From NCBI GenBank assembly GCA_045595285.1, contig JAZOAC010000135.1, positions 23,822 to 87,821 of the forward strand: DNA of 64,000 bases, read 5' to 3'. The notes under the pieces are model-generated. The model saw only the letters and a program-made list of their open reading frames with translations, made no database searches and was not told the origin of the DNA. The stretch is from Kiritimatiellia bacterium. GTDB lineage: Bacteria > Verrucomicrobiota > Kiritimatiellia > RFP12 > UBA1067. Each line of letters starts with the position of its first letter. The first letter of the stretch is position 1. The translations under genes and the position numbers were made by a program. Below, piece after piece: positions 9,487 to 27,168 of this stretch.

Positions 9487-10878
9487 TTATATCCGTTTCG
9501 TTGCATTTGCAGCCTTACGAGGGGAAAATTCCAACACCTTGACGATTTTTTTGTTGTAGATGTCATGCACTGTCACTTTTAATTTTCCGTTTTCCGTCTT
9601 TCCCTCTATGACCGTCTGAAACTGTCCGCGGGCATTGTTCCATCTCCATCCTCCCGCAACAAGATGCGCCCAAGGACGGTCTTCGACGGGAGCATCATAA
9701 CGATATTTGTGGGTGTGAGCCGTCACAACAAGCTGTACGCCAGCCTTGATGAACAACGGTCCCCACATTTTCGAACAGGCTCTCTGCCAACTTGCAAAAT
9801 CCGTACGGTAGCGCGGGTCAGTATCGTTTGGATAGATGTCACCGGGGTTGCTTGTCGGATCGGAATCGAACAGCGGTATGTGGCAGAACGCGACAATGTA
9901 CGGGGCTGACTTTATCTCGGGACGTTCCAGCGCGTCGGCAAGCCATGCGGTCTGAGCGACACGATACGGCTCACTGCAGAAAAGCCCAGCGAACACATCA
10001 CGGGAATCAAGCTTGTCCTCGGCGGTATCCAACCCTATCAAAGCGATGTCGCCCTGCCGGAAAGCGAAATTTCTCCCAAGATCCCAGTCACGTGAAAGCC
10101 GCTCCTCCGGCTGGCGGAACATCACCACCTTCTCCAGTCTGCGGCATGCCATGCCTCGCATGTCATGATTGCCTGGCACGAAGCATACCGGCATCTCCGA
10201 AGCATAATCGCGACGTTCGATCGGAGGCGCGAGAAAAATATTGCGAAGGCTTTCGATCGTTTCCTGGGTATTACAGGCGTCACCATTCCAAATTACCACC
10301 GCAGGATTCAATTCCGCAACTTTGTCCGTCACCTGGGCGAACTCTTCCCATTTCGCGTGGGTATCGTTGTACACGCAGAAATGAGACCTTGCATCCTCCC
10401 CGGACGTGGTGAACGTATAAACCCGCGGATCCTGTTCAACGCCTATGATGCGCATCTTGTATCCGCCGCCGTAGAATATGCGGTCAGCCCCGATGCGGTA
10501 GAAATACTTTGTTGACGGTTTGAGACCGGTAAGCCTGACCAACATGACCTTATCGTTCATGTCTGTCACGCGGAATCCTCCGCACTTGACCTTGCGCGCA
10601 TTCCTCATATCCGCAAATTCCGAATACTCGACGAAACCGTTGGCCATCGCACTCACGGCAAATGCGACACCCATGGAAGTCGGCGCCGGATTCTGGAGCA
10701 TCGGAGCGGAAATTATCAGTTTTCCGGATGCGGACCGGGAATATCCTGTGTCTATTTCCGCGACAGCTTTGACACTCGCTCCGCCTGAGTGATCTACACT
10801 CCTTTGCGACACGCATCCAACACCTGCAACCGATGAGGCAACGGCGGCAAACGACTTTACAAAATCACGTCTGTTCAT
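9487..10878 (-). CDS. Tat-exported metallophosphoesterase (purple-acid-phosphatase-like)
   Basis: 463 aa. Twin-arginine leader MNRRDFVKSFAAVASSVAG. Metallophosphatase motifs NDTH, GDACN, GNHDMRG, CHIPLF, AHTHKY. N-terminal beta-sandwich-like region. Confidence 0.75.
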   Translation of the reverse strand: MNRRDFVKSFAAVASSVAGVGCVSQRSVDHSGGASVKAVAEIDTGYSRSASGKLIISAPMLQNPAPTSMGVAFAVSAMANGFVEYSEFADMRNARKVKCGGFRVTDMNDKVMLVRLTGLKPSTKYFYRIGADRIFYGGGYKMRIIGVEQDPRVYTFTTSGEDARSHFCVYNDTHAKWEEFAQVTDKVAELNPAVVIWNGDACNTQETIESLRNIFLAPPIERRDYASEMPVCFVPGNHDMRGMACRRLEKVVMFRQPEERLSRDWDLGRNFAFRQGDIALIGLDTAEDKLDSRDVFAGLFCSEPYRVAQTAWLADALERPEIKSAPYIVAFCHIPLFDSDPTSNPGDIYPNDTDPRYRTDFASWQRACSKMWGPLFIKAGVQLVVTAHTHKYRYDAPVEDRPWAHLVAGGWRWNNARGQFQTVIEGKTENGKLKVTVHDIYNKKIVKVLEFSPRKAANATKRI

Positions 10879-12945: not shown

Positions 12946-13998
12946 TTACTTTTCCATTGCCACCGCAAGCTGATCCATACCTGCGTAGTTAAAACGAAAC
13001 GCACTCTCGCCCTTGCAGTCGGTCCAGGAGGCCATCATGAACCCCTTGAGTCTGCTATGGGAAATATGTGCGCGGCAGAACTCCACCACCTTTCCGGCAC
13101 AGTCGGAATTATCCGTCCTGCCAGACTTCTTAAGTTTGCCCGACATCCAATTCGAGGAACACGGCACCTGGTCAAACCCGGCCCTGTCCAGATCACAGAA
13201 CAGGCGCAGTTTAGGCTTGAACCACTCCTTCATCTTGTCGATTTCATAGCCCTGTGCATCTTCGTTATAATACCAGTTGCTTTGAAGAACGCTCTTGGGG
13301 CATTTCTGGACAAACTCAGGATGCCTCCAGCCGTAGTCACTGAATATCCATGCGCGTGAGCCTGTCTTCTCAACCTCGTTCACAAACCAAAAGAGGTCGT
13401 GCCACCACAATTCGTTCTGTCTCAAGATCACAAAAGAGCGCTTGCGCTGATTTTCGGTTTTCTCCTCATCGAAACCAAGATGGATGTAGCGGGGGTGCTC
13501 AAATATCTCCGACACATCCTTGATGATATCCGAACAGACGCGGTAATATATCTTCGTGGACACCATACGTCCATATTCCTTGAGCCACTGATGATGGGAT
13601 GCGGAGAAATTCACTTTCGGGATCGGCTCCAGTCCCATAGCCTTAAGGCGACGGACCTCCGTGTGCATGCGGTCTGCGCTCCAGCTGCCCTTCACTGCGA
13701 GTTCCGGATGGCTCGGATACGCAAGAAACTCCCCCAGATCCATCACCACCATGTTGTAGCTGCACTTTACGGCATGATCAATCGTACGCTTCCAGATGTT
13801 TTCCGAAAAATATATCGCATCCCGCGTATAGCGTTTGCCGTCGATTCTGGGTTCACCCGGAGCGATCCACTCGCCCCACATGTTCATGCCCATATGAAGA
13901 AGCACCGCACGGATATCCTCCGGCTTCTTCGCGAATGCGGGTGGTGAGATGAGGGCCGACGCGGCAACAGCCGATTTAATAAAGTCACGTCTGTTCAT
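12946..13998 (-). CDS. Unassigned TIM-barrel-like glycan enzyme, paralogue P1 (Tat leader)
   Basis: ORF 12946..14010 starts at a GTG. The ATG at 13998 gives MNRRDFIKSAVAASALISPPAFA. Family motifs: LLHMGMNMWGEW, AYPSHPELAVKGSWS, VNFSASHHQWL, YIHLGFDEE. Confidence 0.7.
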   Translation of the reverse strand: MNRRDFIKSAVAASALISPPAFAKKPEDIRAVLLHMGMNMWGEWIAPGEPRIDGKRYTRDAIYFSENIWKRTIDHAVKCSYNMVVMDLGEFLAYPSHPELAVKGSWSADRMHTEVRRLKAMGLEPIPKVNFSASHHQWLKEYGRMVSTKIYYRVCSDIIKDVSEIFEHPRYIHLGFDEEKTENQRKRSFVILRQNELWWHDLFWFVNEVEKTGSRAWIFSDYGWRHPEFVQKCPKSVLQSNWYYNEDAQGYEIDKMKEWFKPKLRLFCDLDRAGFDQVPCSSNWMSGKLKKSGRTDNSDCAGKVVEFCRAHISHSRLKGFMMASWTDCKGESAFRFNYAGMDQLAVAMEK

Positions 13999-14009
13999 GA
14001 TCCACCGCA

Positions 14010-16634
14010 CTACCTTATCGAAATCTGGAATCCGGGGATGAACGGTTCAAGACCGCCATCAGCACCCACGCGTACGCGGAGCCTGTCGGCGCCGCAGCGT
14101 ATTTTGGAGATTGAACCGCTTTCAATGCGCAATGTCGCGCCGCTTCCGAGATTGTCCGAAACAAGAAGCGACGCACCTTCTTCGAAGGAGCAGGATACAA
14201 GCGTAAGCGTGGAACCATTCCCGAGAACCAACGGGGAATCCGCCTCCTTCACCACAAGTGCGCCGATGCTGTTCACGGTGCCTGACGCGGTCTCCAATCC
14301 ACCGCCGGCCAACCAGATCGCCGCCCTGGTGTTTTCGCCGGATTCCTGACGTTTGCGGCTTACCTTGAACTGGTCGCTTGCAGCAAGCCGCAAGACACCG
14401 TTGCTAACGCATATTTCGTTCGGAAGCGTGACATCCCCCGAGAGCTCCAATGTTCCGGTGCCATTCTTGACAACATGCACATTCCAGTATCCGTTCGCCT
14501 CCGTATTAAACGAATGATAATCAACGATATTCCCTGTGACGAAGAAATCCGAGCCGTCAGAAACATCATTTACGTTGAAAGTAAACGTCCTCTCTCCGTC
14601 ACCGCCCGCAGCCAAGATGACCAGACCACTCTCGCAAATGGATGGAGAATCGCCGGTCACTATCCAGTTAGCACGTTGTGCGTCATTCAGGACTCGTGCC
14701 GGCTTGCCCTTGATGTTTGCGCCATCCATAAACGTAACATAGTTCAAATATGTATCGGACTCCGTTGCACTTTCCTCCTCCTCGCGAATTGAGAGCGTCC
14801 CGCCAACAAGATCAATCTGATCTGTTGTAGCAGTCTGCAAAGCACCTTTCAGTTTAAGAACGCCATTTGTCATTACACGATATTTCGTCCAACGGGGATT
14901 TTGCACATGGCCGGAAAGTGTCAATGAGGCGTATGGATTTACGGTGACGACACTGTTGGAAGGAAATACAGTTGTGTCTACTGACCGCACCGCAAGCGGA
15001 GAGCTTTCACTTCCGCCGAATGTCAGGTTTCCGCCATTCACGGCGGTGCTTACAGCAGCATATACCACTCCTCCAGTAGCAAATCGCAGACGCAAATTTT
15101 TAATGCCCCTTGATGTTGCCGAATCCGACACCCCGAACCCTCCCAATGTCGTACGAGATGCCGTGGTATATTGTTTGTAGTTGTAAAAATCCAACCCGTA
15201 TGCAATCGATGGATCATCGACTTTCTTTATATACCAATTCCGATATCTTCCAGTGCGAGCCTCAATGTCGTTTCCATTCTGCTTCAAATCCAGCCCGATG
15301 CAATAGATATTGTTTTCATTTTCATCCTGAAACTGTACCGAACCGGCATTACCTGAAATATTCAGATTCACTCCATGCACATAATGCCCTTTATTGGCAT
15401 CATTATGATAGAAAGCATCCACCTCCACAAGATCCGAAAGATCATGGTTCTTTGCAATCGACGTGTAATAGTTTACTCCTCCGTCATCATATGCGTTAGG
15501 CATGTATTCCTCTCTTGCAACCGTAGCACGAGACCGGAATCTCAGGCCAATGTCTTTCACCCCGTGGCTGCCGCTTTCATCGGACGTCGCAAGGCTCCCA
15601 TATCGTCCCAACAAAGGCGAAGAACCTGCATCCGTGCTGAAATGCTCGAAGTCCATGCCCAAATGAACCTGATCGGCAAAGTAATCGTCTACAAGAACGC
15701 CATCCACATAATTTGTGGTAGAAATCTTATAGGTACGATATTTGCTCGTGTACGCTTCCACGTTTTCGCCGTTTTGCCTGAACTCCACAAGCACTCCCGT
15801 AACCAACGTGGGAGATGACTGCAACTGGAACTGGCATGTTTTTTCGCCAAAGCGACTACTTACGTGAGTATATTTAAGATTGTATGCCTGTTGTTCATCA
15901 AAGAGGTTTTTCCCGAAATGGTATTTCCCGGAAACCGAATCAAGATCGGCAAGGCTGCAGTTTTCCGCGACTACAACCCATTCAGCATCCGGGAGGTATC
16001 CGGCTCGAAAATGCGATGCGACTACGGCGTTTGTCACAATAATGTCGCCATTGCCTACTATCGTTTCGCCAATCGAGTCTCCCTCATATACGGAGTATTC
16101 GACCGGTGCGGCAGGCTTGCGCATGGCTATGAAACTTATGTTGAATGCTGAACGGGTACCTGCGGTGAGCGGACGTGGCAACACCCGAGGATTTTTCGCA
16201 TCAACCATTGCGTCAAGGTCCATGCCAAGTTCCACGTCAAGCGGGTTGAGCGAAGCCGCCCTAACAGTATAGGCTATAATGTCGTTTCCGCTTTGCACAA
16301 ACTTAACTGTGACCGAAGCTGTGTACGGCGTCGGCGTAGATGTGCGCGTTACACCCTGAAACTGCACAGTCGCCGACTCCACCCCATTTTCTGACGACCT
16401 GACGATGTTGTATGGTCGCAGAATCTCGTTGTGGAGATCCTGATTTATCTGCCACCGTTGCCCGGAAGACGAACCTTTATTAAAATAGGCGTATGCCGGT
16501 TCATAATCCGAAAGCTTCATACCTGTGAACACCGTATCCGGCTTGTCTGGATCCGATGAGAGCACCTCGTTTGAGGCAGCCTCAAAGGTAATGAAATCGT
16601 CCGACTGCTGAGCATTTGCAAGCAGCATAGTCAT
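14010..16634 (-). CDS. Large secreted beta-helix/PATR-like exoprotein, paralogue 1; signal peptide is encoded upstream of the first in-frame start (see poly-A tract)
   Basis: 874 aa. Three internal repeats of an unrecognised module, then a PATR-like segment (VKNGTGTLELSGDVTL ... NGVLRLAAS). Ends PGFQISIR. The frame is open upstream to TGA 16677-16679 and encodes KKKKIHLGLCVACSMTMLLANA. Confidence 0.8.
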   Translation of the reverse strand: MTMLLANAQQSDDFITFEAASNEVLSSDPDKPDTVFTGMKLSDYEPAYAYFNKGSSSGQRWQINQDLHNEILRPYNIVRSSENGVESATVQFQGVTRTSTPTPYTASVTVKFVQSGNDIIAYTVRAASLNPLDVELGMDLDAMVDAKNPRVLPRPLTAGTRSAFNISFIAMRKPAAPVEYSVYEGDSIGETIVGNGDIIVTNAVVASHFRAGYLPDAEWVVVAENCSLADLDSVSGKYHFGKNLFDEQQAYNLKYTHVSSRFGEKTCQFQLQSSPTLVTGVLVEFRQNGENVEAYTSKYRTYKISTTNYVDGVLVDDYFADQVHLGMDFEHFSTDAGSSPLLGRYGSLATSDESGSHGVKDIGLRFRSRATVAREEYMPNAYDDGGVNYYTSIAKNHDLSDLVEVDAFYHNDANKGHYVHGVNLNISGNAGSVQFQDENENNIYCIGLDLKQNGNDIEARTGRYRNWYIKKVDDPSIAYGLDFYNYKQYTTASRTTLGGFGVSDSATSRGIKNLRLRFATGGVVYAAVSTAVNGGNLTFGGSESSPLAVRSVDTTVFPSNSVVTVNPYASLTLSGHVQNPRWTKYRVMTNGVLKLKGALQTATTDQIDLVGGTLSIREEEESATESDTYLNYVTFMDGANIKGKPARVLNDAQRANWIVTGDSPSICESGLVILAAGGDGERTFTFNVNDVSDGSDFFVTGNIVDYHSFNTEANGYWNVHVVKNGTGTLELSGDVTLPNEICVSNGVLRLAASDQFKVSRKRQESGENTRAAIWLAGGGLETASGTVNSIGALVVKEADSPLVLGNGSTLTLVSCSFEEGASLLVSDNLGSGATLRIESGSISKIRCGADRLRVRVGADGGLEPFIPGFQISIR

Positions 16635-16663
16635 GCTGCAGGCAACGCAAAGACCAAGGTGTA

Positions 16664-16673
16664 TTTTTTTTTT
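16664..16673 (-). repeat. Homopolymer A10 (T10 on + strand) between GTG/RBS and the signal peptide of exoprotein 1
   Basis: Counted directly: gtaTTTTTTTTTTctttcac. GGAG at 16691-16694 and GTG at 16678-16680. A9 or A12 would fuse the GTG to the long ORF. Confidence 0.95.
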
Positions 16674-16714
16674 CTTTCACAACACCATTTCTCCTTTCTA
16701 ATGTTTGGAAACGA

Positions 16715-17890: not shown

Positions 17891-19342
17891 TCAAGAAAAT
17901 TTCCATTCGGTGAAAATCGGATCACCTTTATTACCGAAACTGTCGCAGGGGCGCACGGAAAAACGGTAGCGGCGGCCACGCGAAGGATCAAGCCTCCCGT
18001 TCGGCGCGGGCAGGTCCGAAAGCGCAAACGGACAGACGACCGTTTTCGCGTCCGCCGCCTCGCCCTTGTAGAAACCGGACGAATACACGCGCTTCGTGCG
18101 CCGCACCTTCACGGCATCAACATCCATTTCCTGCAGCTGCACCTCGAAATCGAACGCCCGGGCTCGTCCACCGGCGGCAAAAACATTTGGGAACGAAACG
18201 AACAGCGCCCGCACGGATTCGCCCTTGCGGTCGGCCGCAAACCCCTCTCCGACCGATATCTCCGCATCATCGGCAAACTCCGGAGGCTTCGAGCGCAGCG
18301 CCCGTTTGACGAGCGGATCGACCCTGCCCGGAATCGGCACGATCCAATCGTCCCCGAGCGAAAGATCATTCGCGAAATCACGCCGTTCGAAGGCGATTCT
18401 GTCCCGATAGACGCGGCAGACCATTCCATGCTTGCCGTCTTCCGGGCGAAGCCTCGGCAGAAGCTGATCACCGGTATCGACAGCACCGTCGATCTCTGAG
18501 TTTTCGCGTCCCCCGAACGGTATCAGAAACCGCAGAGCCGCCGTTCCGACCGATGTGAATTCCCCGCGCCAGAGAGTACGCTCGTCGTTGAGCGGCGTGT
18601 GCGAATGCCCTGAGACGGCAACCGCATTGGAAAATTTCGACAGCGCTCTGGTTGCCGTGCCGTCATCCTGTCCCCACGTCCACGGCGCACTGCACGTACC
18701 CCGCGGATGCATATGCTGAACAAAGAAAAACACATCCTCTCCGGCAAGTTCGGATTCCATCCCGGCAAGATATTCCGGAAGGTCCGTCTGTCCGGGCGGC
18801 GCAGTGCGGCGCTGACGGTCGTTCCGGTACTGGTAGCTGGAGCCGACAAAACAGACGCCGTTGATCCGCTTTTTCCACAACGGCTCGTATTCGCAGCCGA
18901 AAAGACGCTTCCATTCTCTGCGCAAACGATCATCGGCATCAAGATTCTCGGCGACAACGCGATCCCACGGCATTTTGATTTCGTCCGCCCAGTCACGGCT
19001 CCAGCGCTGAAGGTCGTGATTGCCGAGGACCGTAAGCAGTTCGACCCTGCGGCCGTCAGCCCCACGACCGTCGGGGAATACGGAGAACCACGCATTCGCA
19101 AGATGCTCCAGTTCGCCGGAGAGTCCGTTGTCGATCATGTCTCCCGCCATGACTACAGCGTCCACCTGCCGGTCGCGGAAATACCTGAGCGCATGGACGG
19201 TCTCCTTCGCCGACTCCGCATCGACGATGTGCATGTCGCTCAGGATTCCGAACACGAGCCGAGGCCGCTCCGCCGCAAATGACGGCATCGCAACCGCGGC
19301 CACAGCTCCGCCCAAAAAACCTCTGCGGGAAACCGCGTTCAT
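17891..19342 (-). CDS. Tat-exported metallophosphoesterase
   Basis: 483 aa. Leader VSRRGFLGGAVAAVAMPSFA. Motifs LSDMHI, AGDMIDNG, GNHD, VQHMHP, GHSHTP. Extra C-terminal beta-rich domain. Confidence 0.75.
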   Translation of the reverse strand: MNAVSRRGFLGGAVAAVAMPSFAAERPRLVFGILSDMHIVDAESAKETVHALRYFRDRQVDAVVMAGDMIDNGLSGELEHLANAWFSVFPDGRGADGRRVELLTVLGNHDLQRWSRDWADEIKMPWDRVVAENLDADDRLRREWKRLFGCEYEPLWKKRINGVCFVGSSYQYRNDRQRRTAPPGQTDLPEYLAGMESELAGEDVFFFVQHMHPRGTCSAPWTWGQDDGTATRALSKFSNAVAVSGHSHTPLNDERTLWRGEFTSVGTAALRFLIPFGGRENSEIDGAVDTGDQLLPRLRPEDGKHGMVCRVYRDRIAFERRDFANDLSLGDDWIVPIPGRVDPLVKRALRSKPPEFADDAEISVGEGFAADRKGESVRALFVSFPNVFAAGGRARAFDFEVQLQEMDVDAVKVRRTKRVYSSGFYKGEAADAKTVVCPFALSDLPAPNGRLDPSRGRRYRFSVRPCDSFGNKGDPIFTEWKFS

Positions 19343-19346
19343 TCAA

Positions 19347-20303
19347 TCAATCCTCCACTATATCAAACACGCGGATGTAATCGACGGCGAAGTCGTCGCC
19401 GAGAGCCTCGTCCAACCGAGGATCTTTCGTGGCGTTCTTCTTGTAGTTCATCGCTTCGGTAGTGATGTAGATGAACTCCTTCGTCTGGGAGACGACTTCG
19501 CCTTTACCCTTGCCGACCTTCTCACCGTGCTGTCTGCCGTCGACAAAAATCGTAAATCCGTCGCTCTCCCACAGCAATCCGTACGTATGGAACTCCTCGG
19601 AACCGAGCTTGAGGATGTGCGGACTCGTCTTCGGCTTTTCGCCCGGCTTCATGCGCGGAGTGACGAACACTCCGTAGTCTGGACCGTAGCCGTTGTAGTG
19701 GAAGCAGTGCGGAATAACCTCGCCCGGGACGAACGACTCCATCACGTCAATCTCCACTCCGCTCCGCGCCGGATCGAGCGTCGCGCCAATATCCACGGAA
19801 TTGAGCCAAAACGCGCTCCACCAGCCGGGCTTGCGCTGAAGGCGGCACCGGCATTCGTAATAGCCGTACCGATGCTCGAACTTCGGCGCTTCACGTTTCC
19901 GGTACGCCCAGCGGCGGAATCCGTTCTGTCCACGGTCGCTCAGTTCGGGATCGACCGGTTCGTCCCAGATGCGGTTGCCCGTCTGGAGACTCGCGGAGCA
20001 GAACTGACCGTCCGGACGTTTCTTCAGCTTCATGTACATTATGCCGTCCTTGAACTCGAGCGTGTCGTCTTCAGGACCTGCAAACCAGCTCGCCCGCTCG
20101 CCCATGTAGTTCGTGCGGTACATCCATTTCGAATCATCCAACCTGTCGCCGTTGAATTCATCATTCCATATGAGCTTAAAGTTCTTGCCCGGCGGCAAAA
20201 GCGAAACCGCCTCCCCTTTTACAGCCTCAACCGTCTGTGGCGGTCTTGCATCCCAGACGATCGCCGAAGCGAACGCCAGCATCGAAACAGTCAGAACGTT
20301 CAT
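19347..20303 (-). CDS. GH16-family endo-glycanase
   Basis: 318 aa. Signal peptide, WNDEFNGDRLDDSKW, and the catalytic ExDxxE block GVEIDVMES. The ATG overlaps the upstream stop (ATGA at 20300-20303). Confidence 0.85.
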   Translation of the reverse strand: MNVLTVSMLAFASAIVWDARPPQTVEAVKGEAVSLLPPGKNFKLIWNDEFNGDRLDDSKWMYRTNYMGERASWFAGPEDDTLEFKDGIMYMKLKKRPDGQFCSASLQTGNRIWDEPVDPELSDRGQNGFRRWAYRKREAPKFEHRYGYYECRCRLQRKPGWWSAFWLNSVDIGATLDPARSGVEIDVMESFVPGEVIPHCFHYNGYGPDYGVFVTPRMKPGEKPKTSPHILKLGSEEFHTYGLLWESDGFTIFVDGRQHGEKVGKGKGEVVSQTKEFIYITTEAMNYKKNATKDPRLDEALGDDFAVDYIRVFDIVED

Positions 20304-21295
20304 ATCTGATCCTTCCCTTCAAACATTGCACGAGCAACATCGTTCATGTCGCAACCGGCCATAAACTTAAAGTCTCCATCCTTGGTGGAAGTGCACCATG
20401 GCACCATGAAGAATCCCGAAATCCGTTCCGGTGGGATATGCTTTCTGCAGAACATCGCAAGATTCGGATGATTCTTCACGTTGACTGCAAGACCTCTCGC
20501 CTTCAGTCTGCCGCTGCACCATACGCTGCCGCACGGGACAAGGTCGAATCCTTTCTCCGCCATGCGCGTAAACACGTCGCTGCGCGAATGGTCGGAATCA
20601 ACCGCCGCTTTTGGATCCGTGAATCGTTCCGCATAGCTCCACGGCGAATGCAGAAAGGATTTCGGCAGACGCGCATAGAATTCCTTCGGATCACGGGTTC
20701 CCGGATTGGAGAACATCCACGGACGGCTGTTGTTCTTCTCCAGGCACTTTGCGTAGAATCCGATGTCATGCCACCACAGATCACCCTCACGGTACACGCA
20801 GTACGCATTGCCGCTGGACCACTTGTACCCCTCTTCATCCATGCCGATGTGGAAATAGGGAGGATTGTCGAATATCTCGCAGGTGTCGTCGATGAGATCC
20901 TTCACCACCTTGTAGTATGTCGGCGATGAGATCATACGCGCGTAATCGCCCAACCAGAAGTCGTGGCAGGTGGAGAAATTGAGTTTCGGCACCACCGTAA
21001 GCCCGCCCGCCTTGAGGCGCTTGACTTCCCTGTTGAGCTTCTCCGCGCTCCAGCTTCCCTTGACGGCGATTTCGGGATGGGACGGATAAACCACACCCTC
21101 TCCGACGTCGATGACAAGCGTATTGGTACCGGATCCCGGCTCCAGCAGGCGCTTCATCCGCAGATTCCAGGATGCATCCGTGCACAGCAGACGGTCCGTA
21201 CAGAAATTAGACCATTTCATGCGGCCGGGACCCCGCCAGATCGCCTCGTCATGCCACATGTTGTAACCCAGATGCTGCATCACTGCCCAGATCAT
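20300..21295 (-). CDS. Unassigned TIM-barrel-like glycan enzyme, paralogue P2 (no signal peptide)
   Basis: ORF 20300..21394 is over-extended. The ATG at 21295 forms an ATGA overlap with the stop of P3. Motifs: MQHLGYNMWHDE, VYPSHPEIAVKGSWS, LNFSTCHDFWL, YFHIGMDEE. Confidence 0.7.
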   Translation of the reverse strand: MIWAVMQHLGYNMWHDEAIWRGPGRMKWSNFCTDRLLCTDASWNLRMKRLLEPGSGTNTLVIDVGEGVVYPSHPEIAVKGSWSAEKLNREVKRLKAGGLTVVPKLNFSTCHDFWLGDYARMISSPTYYKVVKDLIDDTCEIFDNPPYFHIGMDEEGYKWSSGNAYCVYREGDLWWHDIGFYAKCLEKNNSRPWMFSNPGTRDPKEFYARLPKSFLHSPWSYAERFTDPKAAVDSDHSRSDVFTRMAEKGFDLVPCGSVWCSGRLKARGLAVNVKNHPNLAMFCRKHIPPERISGFFMVPWCTSTKDGDFKFMAGCDMNDVARAMFEGKDQI

Positions 21296-22104
21296 ATCGT
21301 CATCTCCTTGAGAGTGCCCAAAACACGGGAAGACGGCAATTTCCCCACGATCACCGCATCTCCGTCCGTACGGATGAACGGGACAGAGTCGCATCCGGCC
21401 TTAACCACCTGCATGAAACGGTCCGCATTGCGCCTTACCGTCAGCGGCTTCAGATTGGAATACACGATGTCCCGCGGACAGTCCGCCAGAAAATCCTTCA
21501 TTCCCCACGGATAATCGAACCATGCCCATGTCCGCGCCCCCGTCTCCTTCACCCAGTCGGAGGTCTTGGCAAGATAACGCATCCAGAGATCTCCTTGGCG
21601 CATCACCGCATACCCTCCTGACGGATGTTGCGTTTGCCCCTCATCCGAGAATCCGATGTGAATGAACCGCGGAGAACCGAATATTCCATACGCGTCCTTC
21701 AAGAGGTCGCGGACAAGGGCGTCGTACGGCTTTGAACACACCATACGGTCGTAGACGCCAAGCCACGAATCCCGTGCAGTGCAGAAATCAAGGAGCGGAA
21801 CGACTTCGATCCCGCCATCCTTCAACCCTTTGACCAACGCCGAAGCCTTCTCCGGTGACATGGAACTCTTCGTTGCTATTTCGGGATGGGATGGATAAAC
21901 GACGCCGTCCTGGACATCCACCAAAGCCACATTGAAACCGCCGGCGCAAAGCTTCGCTTTCAATGCCGATGCGGAAGCTCCGCCGAAAAAGGATTTTCCC
22001 GCAAGCAAAGCCGCCTTGAACGGTCGCTTATCCGAGGCAAATGACGGGAAAGTCAGACCGGCAACCACCGCGGAAGCTCCTGACATGAACTGTTTGCGTG
22101 TCAT
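21292..22104 (-). CDS. Unassigned TIM-barrel-like glycan enzyme, divergent short paralogue P3 (Tat-like RK leader)
   Basis: The ATG at 22104 is preceded by GAGGAG and gives MTRKQFMSGASAVVAGLTFPSFA. Motifs: VVYPSHPEIATKSS, LDFCTARDSWL, FIHIGFSDEG. Lacks the LLHxGxNMW block. Confidence 0.65.
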   Translation of the reverse strand: MTRKQFMSGASAVVAGLTFPSFASDKRPFKAALLAGKSFFGGASASALKAKLCAGGFNVALVDVQDGVVYPSHPEIATKSSMSPEKASALVKGLKDGGIEVVPLLDFCTARDSWLGVYDRMVCSKPYDALVRDLLKDAYGIFGSPRFIHIGFSDEGQTQHPSGGYAVMRQGDLWMRYLAKTSDWVKETGARTWAWFDYPWGMKDFLADCPRDIVYSNLKPLTVRRNADRFMQVVKAGCDSVPFIRTDGDAVIVGKLPSSRVLGTLKEMTI

Positions 22105-22114
22105 TGGCAACTCC

Positions 22115-24442
22115 TCACCGTACGATAACCCTGAAAGCGACCGGACGAAGATATCCGGCGGAATTCTGCGCAACCATCTTTCCGTTCACCCGAATGGCTC
22201 CAAGATGCGCGGAGGAAAGAGAGGCAGATTCACCAAACCTGATCGAACTGCGAGATGCAATGTCGGAAACGACAAAATTAACTGAACCATTCTCCGGCCA
22301 ATCCGTCGCAGGAGGCTTGATTGTGACGGAAGATCCTTCACCGAGTGTAATTGTCGATGCAACACCGGGAATCACCTCGCCCATCGTCAATGCGATTCCG
22401 TCCGCAATCTCAAGATTGCCGCCTGACAGCTTGAAATCCGTCGATTCGCTTGCCGATTTTGGATGGGCGAACCGCCATGTCCCGTCTGCAATCACGGTGG
22501 GCTGATACGGGGTGTACGCCGCCTCCATGCTGACGGTTCCGGGACCTTCCTTGCGGATGTAAGCGGATTTGTAGGCTTCAAAATCAGCATCGCCGACAGG
22601 ATAGAAAAGCCGTATCGGATTCGTAATCCTGAAATCAGCCTCCGCGTTGCCGGTCACGTCCTCGACCTCCATCACGATCGCGCTTGGATCTGCATCCTTC
22701 GCCGGAAACAGAGACATTCCGGTCGCACACACCGATGGAGCGGTGCCTGTAACATACCATCTGGGGTTCATGCCGTATCCGACACGCGGCGCCGCACCTA
22801 AAAGCTTCGCGCCATTCTCGAAATGCATATAGTTGAGATACAATCCGGCATCATCGTAATTCTCCTTGACGGACGTTCTCCCGCTCCAGTATCCGACCAC
22901 AAACGTACCTCCGTTCAGGCATACGCCGTATGTCGATGCCGCCGGAATGCACATTGACGCTCCCTGATACAGGAATCCGCCGTTCTCCACGACAAGTCGC
23001 CCCGTCTCCAATGAACCTGAAAGCACGGCATGACCACCACGCCCTACGACAAGCTGGCCTGACGACGGAATGCTTCCGGCGGAGAACTGCACCATCATAG
23101 GGGACTTGTCGCCACCGCTGACACGAACGACCGATCCCGTAGACATGGAGCTGCGTCCTTCAACCACGGCAACATGCGTCAACGCACCTTCCGCGAAGAA
23201 CAGCTTGAGACTGTGAAGCCCTACTTGTCCCCTATCGGTATAGGAACCGTCTTCATTCCTTTGTTCCGGTATTGTCATCCCCTGACACTCGGAGGACATC
23301 TTCTCAAAATCAATGTCGCCATATTGATAGGAACTTTCAGAAAAACCGTTCGCCCAAGGGGAATTGAACGAATAGGACGCTATGCAGGCCTGTATGTCAC
23401 GCCCCATCTGACGCAATCTGAGCAGACACCCCGTCTGGTAGCTGGAACTTACTTTGTTGTATATCTGCAAAGCGGCATAGGCACCGTTGTTCCGCCAATG
23501 GCTATATGCGGCGGGATCTTTATCGCCGCCTGTTCTGCTGCCGCACAGAATGGCGGTAACATTGGTCAAAGAGGACAGCAATCGGTCCTTGGAAACGGTT
23601 TTCCATTTATCATTGAGAAAGACATCTTTGCCGCACTCAACATCCAACGCCGAATCCGTACGCATCTGTGAAGCCTCGTAGACAATGTCCCCGTCGCCAG
23701 ACACCGCGCCGGAATACGTCTTCTCCTGAGGATTGCGTATGGTCATGACGCCGTCCACACGAAGGTTCCCGGAATATGTCCCCGGAGACTGTACGATTGC
23801 GGAAGCGCCCGTCGCAATGTATTCCGTATCGGAAGGGACTTCAATATCGCCTTCTATCGGAGAGGCCGTCTCTGTCGTTTCAGAAAGCCCTCCCAAACGG
23901 CGCAAAGCGATGAAGTCAACGCCGTATCCCTTTTCAAAGCCACCGCCTGCATCCTCAAGATCGTATCCGGCGCTGCCTTTCACAACTGTCTTGCCGTCGA
24001 AAAGCGATTCCATGTCCCTGCCGTACAGATGCGTGCCGGCCGCCACATAAACGCCGGACAGCCAGGCGTAGACATCGGCATCGCGCTGTTCAAGAATGAC
24101 ATCGAACTGATATGTCGTGTATTTACCGTCATATTTTCTGGCCGCCTGAAGAATGGTTTTCACCCTCTTCTTCCCGTCGGACTCATACCTTCTTTCTGCG
24201 ATGGGCATAAAATCGAACCGTCCGGCACCGTGCAGATAAATGTAATTACCCTTATATTTACTGTAAGATGCGTTTGCCGCAGCCCTTACGGCATAGTCGT
24301 CGACAGAAATGTTTTCAAACACCTTGCGGGCATTTGTCTTGGAGTTGTTTATCATCAATCCCCTATATGTCAAGGTGTACGGGGCTCCTCCCCGCAGGAA
24401 AAGCGGGACACTTGCGGCAATCAACAGCAACATAATTCGCAT
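22115..24442 (-). CDS. Large secreted beta-helix/PATR-like exoprotein, paralogue 2
   Basis: 775 aa. AAGGAG RBS, signal peptide MRIMLLLIAASVPLFL, and two copies of the module seen in paralogue 1. The C-terminal half is homologous to paralogue 1 (LYLNYMHFENGAKLLGAAPRV vs TYLNYVTFMDGANIKGKPARV). Ends VAFRVIVR. Confidence 0.8.
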   Translation of the reverse strand: MRIMLLLIAASVPLFLRGGAPYTLTYRGLMINNSKTNARKVFENISVDDYAVRAAANASYSKYKGNYIYLHGAGRFDFMPIAERRYESDGKKRVKTILQAARKYDGKYTTYQFDVILEQRDADVYAWLSGVYVAAGTHLYGRDMESLFDGKTVVKGSAGYDLEDAGGGFEKGYGVDFIALRRLGGLSETTETASPIEGDIEVPSDTEYIATGASAIVQSPGTYSGNLRVDGVMTIRNPQEKTYSGAVSGDGDIVYEASQMRTDSALDVECGKDVFLNDKWKTVSKDRLLSSLTNVTAILCGSRTGGDKDPAAYSHWRNNGAYAALQIYNKVSSSYQTGCLLRLRQMGRDIQACIASYSFNSPWANGFSESSYQYGDIDFEKMSSECQGMTIPEQRNEDGSYTDRGQVGLHSLKLFFAEGALTHVAVVEGRSSMSTGSVVRVSGGDKSPMMVQFSAGSIPSSGQLVVGRGGHAVLSGSLETGRLVVENGGFLYQGASMCIPAASTYGVCLNGGTFVVGYWSGRTSVKENYDDAGLYLNYMHFENGAKLLGAAPRVGYGMNPRWYVTGTAPSVCATGMSLFPAKDADPSAIVMEVEDVTGNAEADFRITNPIRLFYPVGDADFEAYKSAYIRKEGPGTVSMEAAYTPYQPTVIADGTWRFAHPKSASESTDFKLSGGNLEIADGIALTMGEVIPGVASTITLGEGSSVTIKPPATDWPENGSVNFVVSDIASRSSIRFGESASLSSAHLGAIRVNGKMVAQNSAGYLRPVAFRVIVR

Positions 24443-24460: not shown

Positions 24461-25552
24461 TCAGATTTTAAGATCCGTTTTTGCAGGCTGTGCATCCATT
24501 GCATCCGCAATCTGGTCTATGGCGCTCTGCCAGTAGTATTGAAGATCGGGCTTGATTTCGCCCCACGGTGCGATCATCATTCCCATGAGCTTTTCATCGG
24601 CGAAGTGGGATCTGGCGTACTTCCACATCCATTCCGCCGCCTTCGGGTCCTGCGGATAATCCTTTCCTGTCGGCCACGGCTTGGGCATCTCGCCCTTCCA
24701 TACCCAGTTGCTGGTGAGGGCGAGGACTTCGAAACCGGCCTCATTCAGCTTTTCCATGGTCTCGAAGGTCTTCACCTTGCGCACCAGATGTTCCGTCGGA
24801 CGCTGAGGATTGCATTTAAGCCGTCTTTCGATATCGGCGCGAATCGCGTCCACATCATGTCCGTGTCCATAAAGCCCGATGTTCTGAACCACCGATTTCG
24901 GCATGCGCGAATAGAAATACTCCGGATATGTGCCGGCGACATAACTGGAGAATACAACGGCCCGCGTCCGGTGCTTTTCGAGACAGTCGAGATAGTGGAA
25001 GAAATCCCTCCACCACAGCTCCGCCCGGCGTATGATGACGAGAGGAAACTTCTTCTGCATCTCAAGATTCTCCTCATCCAATCCGAGGTGCATGAACCTA
25101 GGATTTCCGAACACCTCGCAGACGTCGTCGATAATCTCCTTCACCGCCTTGCGGTATATGTCGGTGGAGACCATGCGCCCGTATTCCTTGAGCCATCCGT
25201 CATGGCACGTGGAGAAATTGAGCTTCGGAACCGCCTCAATCCCCATGGACTTGAGTCTCCTGACCTCGGCGGCAAGCTTTTCCGCGCTCCAGCTTCCTTT
25301 GACCGCGAGTTCGGGATGGCTCGGATAGACAAGCCCTTCACCCACATCGATGACTGCCATGTTGAGGCGCCGTTCCCGCATCCGTTCCGTAAGGGCATGC
25401 CATACATTCCCGTCGGTCCGAAGATGTCCGCATGTGTATGTGAGTCCTTTTTCCCTTTTCTCGCCGGGAGCAAGATACTCCCCCCACATGTTCTGTCCGA
25501 GATGAAGAAGTATCGCCCTGATCTTTTCCTTATGTGAAGCGCAGTCTGCCAT
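24461..25552 (-). CDS. Unassigned TIM-barrel-like glycan enzyme, paralogue P4 (no signal peptide)
   Basis: ORF 24461..25582 begins at a TTG overlapping the tannase stop. The ATG at 25552 gives MADCASHKEKIRAILLHLGQNMWGEY. Motifs: VYPSHPELAVKGSWS, LNFSTCHDGWL, FMHLGLDEE. Confidence 0.7.
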   Translation of the reverse strand: MADCASHKEKIRAILLHLGQNMWGEYLAPGEKREKGLTYTCGHLRTDGNVWHALTERMRERRLNMAVIDVGEGLVYPSHPELAVKGSWSAEKLAAEVRRLKSMGIEAVPKLNFSTCHDGWLKEYGRMVSTDIYRKAVKEIIDDVCEVFGNPRFMHLGLDEENLEMQKKFPLVIIRRAELWWRDFFHYLDCLEKHRTRAVVFSSYVAGTYPEYFYSRMPKSVVQNIGLYGHGHDVDAIRADIERRLKCNPQRPTEHLVRKVKTFETMEKLNEAGFEVLALTSNWVWKGEMPKPWPTGKDYPQDPKAAEWMWKYARSHFADEKLMGMMIAPWGEIKPDLQYYWQSAIDQIADAMDAQPAKTDLKI

Positions 25553-25578
25553 AATTCGCGTTCCCTTCCGTTCTTCAG

Positions 25579-27168
25579 TCAATAGAGACCGTCCGTTTTC
25601 GTTTCAAGGCAACGCCCGTCGATTCTCGCCGCGCCTCGCGGCGTCTCTTTGCGCACCCATCCGCCATTTGCGTCATGGACAAACAATCCGGGATAGGCGG
25701 CGACGGGCAGAGTCATCCTGCGCGAGGTCCAATTGCAGACGAGACGCTCCGGAGCGACGCCGCGTTCACACCAGTCCGTCAGCATCCGCCGCACCTGCGC
25801 ACCGCCCGGAGACGCCGTCATCACCCTCCCCTTTCCTCCGCCGTGCGCGCAGCCGGGGATGCAGAATAAACGGAAATATCCAAGCGTCTTTTCAATTCCG
25901 CCGTCCTTCTCGCAGACACGCTCGTAATAATCGATGATCGGATTCGGCGGAATCGTCTGATCCTCCCATCCGGCGGTCATTATGATCTTGCCGCCGCGCC
26001 GGCGGAATGCGGAAAGGTCGGGCGAACAGGCGTTGAACCGCGGCCCGTATTCCTTCAGATAGCCGTCGATCACATTCCATCCGATCTTCTTCCAGTCACG
26101 GTATCCGATCCCTTTCGACATGAGGTAGCTGCGAAGATTCACAATCCCCATCCATGTCATATTCTTGCCCAGATACGAACCAGGGGCGAAACCGTTGAAA
26201 CAGCATCTGCCGTCATGGACGAGAGGAATGTACAATCTCCTGAGGCGGGCAAGTTTATCCCCGTCCTTGATCGAAGGACAACGCTCTGCCGCCAATGCAA
26301 GAAAACCGTCAATGTCGGTTTCCGACAGACGTCCATCGGAAATGGTGTGCCCGGCGAAAGGCTCCGGCTCCTTCGACCTGCGGTAATCGACGGCCGCATC
26401 CGCCACCACACGCATTTCGTTCGTGGTGAACAGCAGTTTTCCGTCATCGCCGTGCGTCTGCCGCCAGAGATGCCATACCGCCATCTCGTTCACGGCGGCG
26501 TTGTTGTCCGGCAGAATCGAAATTATTCCGTCGTAGTCCTCCGGGAAACGGATCGCCTCGCTCATCGCCTGGCGGCCGCCTGTGGAACCACCGCAGAAAT
26601 ACGCCTTGTCGCAGGGACGGCCGTAGAACGCCTTGACGATCTTCCTGCCGTAAACCGTCATCAGATGGGTGGCGCGCCATTCGAAATCACGCCTGACGCT
26701 CTCCGGCCATATTTTGGAATTGGTCTTTCCGCAATCGGTGATCTTCCAGGTTCCGAGATCGGTAGCAACCCCCGCCGTGCCCGCGGCGGTGTATGCAGTG
26801 AGCGACGGCAACACTCCGCCGTGTCCACTATTGCCCTGCCCCCACATACGTCCATCCCACAATTTCGGCGGCGGCAGTTCAGCACGACAACGGATATCAC
26901 TTCCTTCTTCCGGTTTAAGCACAAAATCGACGCGAACGAAAAAGCCCTTCTTCGCATTCGCCTTTTCCTCCTCCTGAATCGCCGCCCACATCGCAAGCGG
27001 ATTTGGAGTTTTCTTAGAACCGCGCTCAATGAGCACAGCATTCGTCACAAAGCATATAGCATCCGAAACCCCTTTGACGCGTTTAAAACGCACTTCAAGG
27101 TCATCCCCGAACCCACTCAGGGCAAGAATGGTCATGAAGAATCCTGTAAATGCAATCCTTGCTTTCAT
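25579..27168 (-). CDS. tannase/feruloyl-esterase-family alpha/beta hydrolase
   Basis: ORF 25579..27210 starts at a TTG. The ATG at 27168 gives the signal peptide MKARIAFTGFFMTILALSGFG. Family nucleophile block YFCGGSTGGRQAM. Confidence 0.8.
   Translation of the reverse strand: MKARIAFTGFFMTILALSGFGDDLEVRFKRVKGVSDAICFVTNAVLIERGSKKTPNPLAMWAAIQEEEKANAKKGFFVRVDFVLKPEEGSDIRCRAELPPPKLWDGRMWGQGNSGHGGVLPSLTAYTAAGTAGVATDLGTWKITDCGKTNSKIWPESVRRDFEWRATHLMTVYGRKIVKAFYGRPCDKAYFCGGSTGGRQAMSEAIRFPEDYDGIISILPDNNAAVNEMAVWHLWRQTHGDDGKLLFTTNEMRVVADAAVDYRRSKEPEPFAGHTISDGRLSETDIDGFLALAAERCPSIKDGDKLARLRRLYIPLVHDGRCCFNGFAPGSYLGKNMTWMGIVNLRSYLMSKGIGYRDWKKIGWNVIDGYLKEYGPRFNACSPDLSAFRRRGGKIIMTAGWEDQTIPPNPIIDYYERVCEKDGGIEKTLGYFRLFCIPGCAHGGGKGRVMTASPGGAQVRRMLTDWCERGVAPERLVCNWTSRRMTLPVAAYPGLFVHDANGGWVRKETPRGAARIDGRCLETKTDGLY

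Follow-up and report, generated by a model that had tools for sequence, protein, structure and literature searches.

A tandem all-β module on exported β-helix proteins of one Kiritimatiellae family matches no described domain family and is a candidate ligand-binding head

Two exported proteins encoded in a 64,000-nt stretch of DNA from an uncultured gut/rumen bacterium of the Kiritimatiellia (the window, meaning the whole stretch that was analyzed) carry tandem copies, three in P0001 (exoprotein 1) and two in P0002 (exoprotein 2), of a module of ~150 residues (~140–165 aa). Structure prediction, together with the repeat statistics, shows these repeats as a real, independently folding all-β domain, and our searches show that this domain constitutes a separate family, which is confined to one family of the Kiritimatiellae and has expanded there. 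As to its role, we see about an even chance that the module is a new, lineage-specific head domain that binds a ligand, by binding or sensing glycans, and that is mounted on a β-helix stalk.

The earlier note on this DNA had described such a module as repeated three times in exoprotein 1 and twice in exoprotein 2. All 18 of the landmark strings it quoted are present in the P0001 and P0002 ORFs, in the order it gave, beginning at residues 88/108/136/164, 265/281/325/358, and 431/446/479/510 of P0001 and at residues 111/140/173 and 339/374/407 of P0002. Self-BLAST of P0001 reported no internal repeats; similarity was scored segment by segment, by Smith–Waterman comparison against 300 shuffles and with HMMs. 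The former gave z=5.1 for modules 1a and 1b and higher values for 1b with 1c or 2b (Table 1). Trained on the three modules from 26 P0001 orthologues, an HMM recovered all three copies in P0001 and gave one match in P0002, to copy 2b, which strengthened on iteration. Copy 2a was not recovered by this HMM even after four iterations. A second HMM, made from paralogue modules on other contigs, does match P0002 residues 35–182, with 13.6 bits and an E value of 2.7e-6 for one sequence, which becomes ~0.05 when scaled to all ORFs of the genome. Moreover, 2a scores z=8.6 in Smith–Waterman comparison with the module of the C133 paralogue, and hhalign aligns region 2a, taken from seven P0002 orthologues, with the module alignment over the C-terminal half, landmarks in register (E 2e-4, probability 46%). 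By sequence comparison, 1b and 1c, 1a, and 2b are clearly homologous copies, and the membership of 2a, as a divergent copy, is supported at a weaker level; the count of three and two is thereby borne out. The span first assigned to the P0001 repeats, 14950–16370 (residues 89–562), was right as to the repeats but not as to their ends, since 1a begins close to residue 38 (nt 16523) and 1c runs only to residue 522 (nt 15069).

Table 1. Positions of the exoproteins, their modules and linkers, and a context gene in the window
Feature	Coordinates	Strand	Description
Context gene	12946..14010	-	Tat-exported 354-aa protein; often adjoins P0001 orthologues
Exoprotein 1 (P0001)	14010..16634	-	874 aa counted from first ATG; ORF and translation
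P0001 C-terminal β-helix-like region	14013..15068	-	Residues 523–874; ends PGFQISIR
Module 1c	15069..15521	-	Residues 372–522; HMM i-E 2e-47; modeled singly
Module 1b	15525..16013	-	Residues 208–370; HMM i-E 1e-49; z=18.5 vs. 1c
Linker 1a–1b	16014..16106	-	Residues 177–207; β-helix-rung-like motif GNGxxxVT
Module 1a	16107..16523	-	Residues 38–176; HMM i-E 3e-34; secondary-structure order same as 1b and 1c
Exoprotein 2 (P0002)	22115..24442	-	775 aa; intact signal peptide; seven orthologues
Module 2b	23183..23635	-	Residues 270–420; HMM i-E 4e-7, 1e-19 after iteration; z=6.6 vs. 1b, 4.7 vs. 1c
Linker 2a–2b	23636..23896	-	Residues 183–269; PATR-like rungs GNLRVDGVMTIRNP and SGDGDIVY, from sequence reading
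Module 2a	23897..24340	-	Residues 35–182; divergent, paralogue subtype ending GYGVDxIxLRR

P0001, which has 36 full-length homologues at 39–97% identity, begins with a Sec-type signal peptide that is broken upstream by an A10 tract. In both proteins a β-helix-like rod makes up the C-terminal two-fifths. In the full-length AF2 model of P0001 (pLDDT 90.5, pTM 0.85), this region is built of numerous strands of 3–5 residues and closes with β-helix rungs and a short tail, ...ISIR; it is homologous to residues 280–775 of P0002 (E 2e-25). Linker 1a–1b contains short strands (E178–182 and E198–202) in the same model, with a G.G..V.VT pattern conserved in the homologue alignment. The module thus lies, as had been proposed, N-terminal to a PATR-like β-helix, yet P0001 remains below threshold for Pfam PATR (PF12951; 13.6 bits, E 0.07, against 27 bits) and for TIGR02601 (9.7 against 19.85 bits), P0002 matches neither, and the two proteins were accordingly rejected as PATR family members. 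An identity as type Va autotransporters was likewise rejected, as Pfam at E≤1 finds no autotransporter barrel (PF03797, the 12-strand translocator) in either. The barrel-less PATR proteins of PVC bacteria (PF12951, TIGR02601) are alike in the β-helix-like C-terminal rod, in the label attached to family members, and in the PATR repeats of the larger members, but the definition of PATR does not include a tandem N-terminal module, which is undescribed.

Because Foldseek searches with the full-length P0001 model returned only meaningless whole-chain alignments (TM ≤0.13), one module was modeled separately. Modeled alone with AF2, 1c is predicted to be a compact nine-strand domain (pLDDT 95.5, pTM 0.90) with strands of 9–13 residues joined via hairpins of 2–3 residues. 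Five or six of the strands are long and make up an up-and-down meander, a conserved loop of 40 residues precedes the last strand, and there is no C-terminal helix. Structure prediction and Foldseek, the route that the earlier note had suggested, gave a confident fold without a neighbor in the PDB (best E 0.54, TM<0.3, with full-length alignments at rmsd >10 Å). No CBM or lectin of solved structure proved similar, the best CBM being 4v18_A (E 0.96, TM 0.24, rmsd 15 Å). Lipocalins (3zq3, 6s8v, 1epa, and 2a2g) are among the weak matches, at E 0.8–2.5. The calycin up-and-down β-barrels (lipocalins, avidin-like) do resemble the module in their long antiparallel meander, tight hairpins, and size, but they are not superposable on it (TM 0.17–0.27, rmsd 10–16 Å), the module differs in its conserved loop and its lack of a C-terminal helix, and there is no sequence signal; lipocalin/calycin membership was rejected. 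Among viral protein models (BFVD), Foldseek found borderline matches to C7U0J2, A0A8T9VRW4, and A0A8S5VKY6 (probability 1.00, TMq 0.41–0.61, ~150–170 columns, E 1e-3 to 8e-3). These are the best structural neighbors found; they are predicted models of single-domain proteins of ~190 aa, at 8–12% identity, and add nothing on function.

The module profile comprises 149 positions, with landmarks in the order YLP..W..VA.N..L.DL / QFQ / FRQNG.N[VI]EA / G.DF..Y / G[VI]K.L.L.F; module 1a is without the N-terminal YLP...W..VA motif. Searched against 1.84 billion protein clusters, the profile matched 544 at E≤1e-3 and 276 at E≤1e-10. Family proteins contain one to four modules, almost always followed by a PATR-type β-helix, and named members bear the database name [quoted passage not shown] The additional domains of 13 long members are PATR repeats only, besides Laminin_G_3 and Ig in one protein, and the module-bearing P0126 contains PATR above threshold (109 bits, 1e-31). 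A scan of genomes of the phylum, akin to the PVC scan suggested earlier, matched 5 of 301, all from the window's own family, with no match outside it in this sample; within a sample of that family, the module is present in 64 of 151 genomes, which represent 17 of 27 genera. The taxonomy of the module family is taken from these genome searches and from cluster names. The window's genome alone encodes nine module-bearing proteins, and a related-locus search with the full-length alignment returned a single MAG locus. In the module tree, 1a forms a separate clade of its own, and it is the best conserved of the three P0001 copies (mean pairwise identity 0.62 among orthologues); by tree and identities, position a is conserved and position c is swapped between orthologues. 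The positions most conserved over all copies are polar ones (Q434, Q436, Q452, D482, and D401, the last in an L-x-D motif) and, within the long loop (G.DFE.Y..P.R..Y...D), aromatic, Pro, and Arg residues.

Each module protein examined sits amid carbohydrate-active genes, with glycoside hydrolases and phosphoesterases adjoining. The neighbors in the window are GH16, GH109, GH78, a tannase/feruloyl esterase, a sugar-acid pathway, and an SSF transporter; orthologue loci contain GH109, GH127, DUF4838, NagB, and an FGE-sulfatase, and paralogue loci contain GH13, GH28, GH43, GH78, GH106, a GH63-like gene, an AXE1-like gene, and NAGPA. The Tat-exported 354-aa protein encoded next to P0001 belongs to an unassigned family with ~12 copies in the genome, including paralogues at 20300–21394, 21292–22173, and 24461–25582 (E 8e-79 and 1e-40). 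Members lie within 4 kb of a P0001 orthologue in four loci (L007, L011, L012, and L013), and the protein itself gives only a weak GH20 match in the PDB (E 0.15). Three P0001 orthologues are single ORFs in which the exoprotein is preceded by a zf-HC2 anti-σ or ECF-σ part and a transmembrane segment, and one of these follows an ECF σ gene with an ATGA overlap; other orthologues come after an AraC regulator. Because the ribosome-binding site, ATG, and signal peptide that belong to the exoprotein are all retained within the joined ORFs, these may represent read-through ORFs and not functional fusions, and the exoprotein may still be produced separately. The likeness to ECF σ/anti-σ sensing with large extracytoplasmic sensors consists in these three orthologues, whereas P0001 and P0002 of the window carry a signal peptide only.

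A binding role is suggested, indirectly, by the glycan loci, the conserved polar and aromatic residues, the σ/anti-σ ORFs and AraC regulators, and the exchange at position c. In the mechanism that we propose, the modules would form the ligand-binding head of the protein, outside the cytoplasm, with a polymeric glycan or phosphorylated glycopolymer as the likely target. Tandem copies would provide avidity, and the rigid β-helix would serve as a stalk or as a scaffold. By binding, the modules would either keep substrate within reach of the Tat-exported hydrolases of the adjacent genes or signal its presence to the regulator of the locus, and divergence of paralogues and the swapped copies at position c would vary specificity. 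The sugar polymers degraded by products of the neighboring genes are the probable ligands that the module binds or senses, and its location, a site at which one would expect carbohydrate-binding or adhesin modules, appears consistent with the gene neighborhoods. The neighborhood is, however, weak evidence for binding, as glycan loci abound in this genome, the module contains no recognizable sugar-binding motif, and the conserved polar residues could belong to a structural network or bind a metal instead of forming a ligand site. The tandem CBMs and SGBPs of PULs (CBM32/F5_F8_type_C arrays and Bacteroidota SGBPs) are similar in having tandem all-β domains of ~150 residues on an exported noncatalytic protein, in belonging to glycan-degradation operons, and in their variable copy number and diverged paralogues. 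In contrast, the module, a putative binder, shares neither sequence nor fold with any CBM or lectin, and the SGBPs employ an Ig-like scaffold, in Bacteroidota, where the module proteins employ a β-helix, in Kiritimatiellae.

The modules could alternatively be ligand-free spacers or stalk extensions, with any function residing in the β-helix or elsewhere, as Ig-like/Big domains in adhesins are spacers that lengthen or stiffen a rod. The confident prediction of the full-length model as a single rigid body (pTM 0.85) suggests a stiff rod, which would fit a purely structural role too, and the β-helix-like rungs between modules, the copy number of 1 to 4, and the lack of a known binding motif point the same way. 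Yet in spacer domains usually core and turn residues alone are conserved, whereas module a is conserved to the same degree as the helix and the invariant positions are mostly polar. The module, having ~150 residues and an extended conserved loop, is also bigger and more elaborate than typical spacers, and we consider a spacer role rather unlikely.

The module had earlier been reported as fitting no known domain family, and sequence searches agree with the Foldseek result on this point. Pfam and NCBIfam, searched with full-length P0001 and P0002, gave no family assignment; Pfam searches with 56 separate module sequences at E≤1 gave no family matched by more than one member (the sole F5_F8_type_C match has E 0.039); and the module profile found nothing among PDB sequences. 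There is thus no confident match to a CBM or adhesin domain by sequence (Pfam, NCBIfam) or by fold (Foldseek), and the established CBM and lectin families (the CBM_ families, F5_F8_type_C, Laminin_G_3, and others) were rejected on both counts. A tblastn search of 50,697 phage records with a paralogue module gave no match, and a literature search on Kiritimatiellae with β-helix or autotransporter found nothing relevant. Nevertheless, the module might be a highly divergent member of a known CBM, lectin, or calycin-like family that lies beyond the reach of these tools: Foldseek is weak on twisted all-β folds, lipocalins and one CBM do appear among the low-level matches, the borderline viral models indicate that the fold is not unique, and five members weakly match phrog_29420 (best E 9e-5). 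Against this stand a model of high confidence (pLDDT 95.5) that still finds no PDB neighbor, the failure of any Pfam family to recur among the 56 members, and the empty PDB sequence search, which together make such a hidden relationship quite improbable.

We likewise find it very doubtful that the modules adhere to proteins or cells, such as other microbes, feed particles, or host epithelium, rather than capturing or sensing glycan substrates. Their architecture is like that of the passenger adhesins Hap, SepA, and IgA1 protease (matches weak, TM about 0.1), the family is fast evolving and lineage specific with module swapping, and the 5′ A10 tract suggests on/off switching, as in surface antigens; however, the proteins are found consistently within catabolic sugar operons and not in adhesion or secretion loci, and Pfam and NCBIfam reveal neither a translocator barrel nor a known anchor. 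Finally, that the repeats are mere turns of one continuous β-helix, or a chance or low-complexity pattern, was rejected as extremely improbable: nothing other than the β-helix-like linkers favors it, repeats of ~20–30 residues with three short strands per turn are not seen, the full-length and single-module AF2 models both contain discrete domains with hairpinned strands of 9–13 residues, a lone module reaches pTM 0.90, and the repeat scores extend to z=18.5 and HMM E values to 1e-49.

Returning to a ligand-binding head, its most far-reaching version is that of a new carbohydrate-binding or glycopolymer-sensing family with no solved fold, which arose and expanded in one gut/rumen family of Kiritimatiellae and in some species became wired to an ECF σ/anti-σ switch. 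A β-helix "antenna" with exchangeable heads would then capture and report polymers, possibly phosphodiester-linked glycopolymers of bacterial walls. We regard this fuller account as unlikely.

Kiritimatiellae are abundant, nearly uncultured glycan degraders of guts and sediments. To our knowledge they have no SusC/D system like that of Bacteroidota, and we know of no described mechanism by which they capture or sense polymers. A multicopy, lineage-specific domain on exported β-helix proteins in sugar operons is a candidate for this missing recognition layer. The module is also a tractable target, being small and, as predicted, independently folding, and it should be expressible. Should it prove to bind glycans, it would become the founder of a new CBM family and a source of new affinity reagents; even as a spacer, it would represent a new family of structural domains that merits an entry in Pfam.

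The modules of exoprotein 1 (P0001; 1a, 1b and 1c) and exoprotein 2 (P0002; 2a and 2b) represent an independently folding, lineage-specific family of all-beta domains, which occur as tandem copies N-terminally in exported beta-helix proteins encoded in glycan loci. The AlphaFold2 model of full-length P0001, computed on a 26-sequence alignment, is confident (pLDDT 90.5, pTM 0.85) and shows long strands to about residue 522, followed from about residue 523 on by many strands of 3 to 5 residues that form a beta-helix-like rod. The modules are thus N-terminal to the beta-helix, as the earlier note had proposed, the PATR repeat itself being sub-threshold. Module 1c, modelled alone from an alignment of 56 copies covering all positions and the paralogues, reached pLDDT 95.5 and pTM 0.90 and contains nine strands; strands 3 to 8 make up an up-and-down meander whose turns span 2 to 3 residues, and the last strand is preceded by a 40-residue loop with short helices. 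In the full-length model the order of secondary-structure elements is identical in 1a, 1b and 1c. These long modelled strands, the common element order and the model of the module alone rule out that the repeats are turns of a continuous beta-helix, the outcome of structure prediction that the earlier note had named as refuting its reading. Short beta-helix-like rungs are also seen between modules, at residues 177-207 of P0001 and 183-269 of P0002 and in an insertion in the homologues P0036 and P0037; they are PATR-like (GNGxxxVT, GNLRVDGVMTIRNP), as if the domains budded from an interrupted beta-helix.

All the landmark strings on which the repeat was first recognized were found, in the order stated. 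Segment-wise Smith-Waterman scores against 300 shuffles gave z=18.5 for 1b-1c, 5.1 for 1a-1b, 6.6 for 1b-2b and 4.7 for 1c-2b, and no significant similarity of 2a to any of the other four copies. Each of the three P0001 modules is conserved as a unit across the homologue alignment. An HMM constructed from 78 module segments of 26 orthologues matches P0001 three times (i-E 3e-34, 1e-49 and 2e-47), P0002 once, at 2b, and, once or twice each, seven more proteins that this genome encodes on other contigs. For 2a, an HMM built only from the modules on those other contigs matches P0002 residues 35-182 (13.6 bits, single-sequence E 2.7e-6), and comparison with the module of a paralogue on contig C133 gave z=8.6. 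In addition, when the 2a regions of seven P0002 orthologues were combined into a profile, it aligned with the module profile over the C-terminal half (hhalign E 2e-4), with the landmarks V.LEQRD.DVYAW, L.GRDM and KGYGVD.I.LRR in register. Collectively, the shuffle scores, HMM matches and additional 2a tests support a count of three modules for P0001 and two for P0002, 2a being the weakest. Module 1a begins about 50 residues before the start given in the earlier note. A chance pattern is refuted by z values up to 18.5 and i-E values down to 1e-49.

Searches for a known family bear out the description of the module as unrecognized. Pfam and NCBIfam on the whole proteins returned only a sub-threshold PATR repeat at 722-735, and when the 56 module sequences were scanned individually, none of the Pfam families was hit by two or more of them, even at E<=1. 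No PDB sequence was found with the module profile or with P0001 itself, and a Foldseek search of 350,542 PDB chains with the single-module model gave nothing below E 0.5; full-length alignments had TM 0.17-0.30 and rmsd 9-16 Å, superposition being limited to hairpin fragments of about 42 residues. Among predicted viral structures the similarity was borderline (E 1e-3 to 8e-3, probability 1.00, TMq 0.41-0.61), and every protein matched there is uncharacterized. phrog_29420, a PHROG family without function, weakly matches five module members and two paralogues from the window's genome, and tblastn against phage genomes gave no match.

HMMER searches of 1.84 billion cluster representatives with the module profile identified 544 proteins at E<=1e-3, of which 276 reach E<=1e-10 and 37 reach E<=1e-30, with one to four module stretches each and mostly 650-1000 aa long. 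In 13 long members Pfam detected only PATR repeats, besides Laminin_G_3, Ig and DUF1349-like domains in one protein, and members that carry a name in their source are called [quoted passage not shown] Matches occur in 5 of 301 genomes of the phylum sample, all five in the window's own family, and within a sample of that family in 64 of 151 genomes and 17 of 27 genera, where a single genome may contain as many as 18 matched stretches. Within the phylum sampled, the module is a lineage-restricted, expanded family.

The C-terminal parts of the two exoproteins are homologous (P0001 390-874 and P0002 280-775, E 2e-25). P0001 has 36 full-length homologues (39-97% identity), all from metagenomes, one of them named Kiritimatiellae. 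Immediately upstream of its first ATG an in-frame TGA is followed by KKKKIHLGLCVACS. Ten consecutive A's stand between an RBS and GTG on one side and the signal peptide on the other; were there nine, translation from the GTG would yield MKEKKIHLGLCVACSMTMLLANA. The run is prone to slippage or was misassembled, so that P0001 as assembled lacks most of its signal peptide. A third beta-helix exoprotein contains no module copy, and its frame is broken near the C terminus by either a frameshift or a sequencing error: frame 0 stops at 55623, with the conserved tail ...YGFAISIR carried on in another frame.

Coordinates of the exoproteins, neighboring genes and regulator-joined orthologues
Feature	Sequence	Coordinates	Strand	Remark
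P0001	window	14010-16634	minus	ORF, 874 aa counted from first ATG
Region upstream of P0001	window	16640-16700	minus	TGA, ten-A run
P0002	window	22115-24442	minus	ORF, 775 aa
Third beta-helix exoprotein	window	55379-57725	minus	broken frame
Partner-family paralogue	window	12946-14010	minus	~350 aa
Partner-family paralogue	window	20300-21394	minus	~350 aa
Partner-family paralogue	window	21292-22173	minus	~350 aa
Partner-family paralogue	window	24461-25582	minus	~350 aa
Phosphoesterase	window	9487-10878		
Phosphoesterase	window	17891-19342		
P0018, P0001 orthologue	L014	4432-8099		anti-sigma-like N terminus
P0023, P0001 orthologue	L015	1114-4539		ECF sigma regions 2 and 4

The module tree places position a in a tight clade and positions b and c as sisters. 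Position c is occupied by a b-like copy in P0027, P0029, P0032, P0036 and P0037 and by a third, divergent HHHWKYTYANGVGDCYKT type in P0028, P0030, P0033 and P0035; in the orthologue alignment it is exchanged while module a is nearly constant. Mean pairwise identity among orthologues is 0.62 for module a, 0.50 for b, 0.44 for c and 0.58-0.62 for the beta-helix. Over all 56 copies the most conserved residues (P0001 numbering) are L399 and D401 (L-x-D-L motif), Q434 and Q436 (QFQ), Q452 and G454 (QNG), G480 and D482 (G.DF), P492, Y497, D504 and G510, and many of the most conserved positions are polar.

P0001 and P0002 belong to a cluster of about 24 kb on the minus strand, which encodes, in transcription order, a tannase/feruloyl esterase, a 373-aa protein of the partner family, P0002, two more paralogues of the 373-aa protein, GH16, a metallophosphoesterase, an enolase-superfamily dehydratase, P0001, a fourth paralogue (with a Tat signal), GH109, a purple-acid-phosphatase-like enzyme, an SSF symporter, KDPG aldolase, a PfkB kinase and a GH78 rhamnosidase. 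The partner paralogues, members of an unassigned family that flank both exoproteins, share an H[LI]G[FM]DEE motif, and some begin with a Tat leader. About 12 copies exist in the genome, and a family member lies less than 4 kb from the orthologue in four of six independent orthologue loci. Their sole outside hint is to GH20 hexosaminidase (E 0.15). Orthologue locus L012 has the same dehydratase-to-kinase gene order as the window, and others carry GH109, GH127, DUF4838, NagB, FGE-sulfatase and glycyl-radical enzyme genes. Module proteins on the other contigs adjoin GH13, NAGPA and RraA (C117); Exo_endo_phos (C133); the partner family, DUF6259, an AXE1-like esterase and GH28 (C75); a GH63-like hydrolase (C58); a metallophosphoesterase and an Exo_endo_phos-GH78 fusion (C89); and GH106, a metallophosphoesterase and GH43 (C165). 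Pfam matched none of the neighbors of the C100 copy. Thus, from the window, orthologue loci and paralogue contigs, the tie of module proteins to carbohydrate-active genes is general, with enzyme sets that vary by paralogue. Phosphoesterases (Metallophos, Exo_endo_phos, NAGPA phosphodiester glycosidase, Y_phosphatase3 and, at L009, GDPD) recur beside module genes on C89, C117, C133 and C165, in the window and at L009, L011 and L012, accompanied by rhamnosidases and GH109, and a peptidoglycan amidase (Amidase_2) is found at L012. This recurrence, with GDPD and Amidase_2, suggests that the substrates may be phosphodiester-linked glycopolymers, for example polysaccharides of bacterial walls or ones resembling teichoic acids.

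In three P0001 orthologues, regulator parts precede the exoprotein within a single ORF. P0035 consists of a zf-HC2 anti-sigma domain, a transmembrane segment, a linker and the exoprotein; P0018 has an anti-sigma-like N terminus and a transmembrane segment, and its ORF and an upstream ECF sigma gene share an ATGA overlap; in P0023, ECF sigma regions 2 and 4 precede a transmembrane segment, linker and exoprotein. All three keep the exoprotein signal peptide, and both checked in DNA, P0018 and P0023, keep its own Shine-Dalgarno and ATG inside the ORF, so that the product could be a fusion protein, in a genuine fusion to a sensor, as well as a separate exoprotein made from a nested start. An AraC-type regulator precedes other orthologues. 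As a hint of the Rosetta-stone type, these fusions and neighbors connect the exoprotein with signal perception for its locus.

With about even confidence, we read the modules as a ligand-binding head for a glycan or phosphoglycan polymer, which the beta-helix would carry as a stalk. Tandem copies would supply avidity, and swapped or paralogous copies specificity; the head may capture substrate for the neighboring Tat-exported enzymes or sense its ligand. That the modules are a structural spacer is unlikely, and a divergent member of a known family missed by the searches here and a protein or cell adhesin are both improbable. Lineage-specific domains of this sort are common in metagenomic dark matter. 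The module is a new domain family in a familiar architecture, in which an exported scaffold encoded in a sugar-utilization locus bears accessory beta-domains, and it lends itself well to structure determination and to assays of glycan binding.
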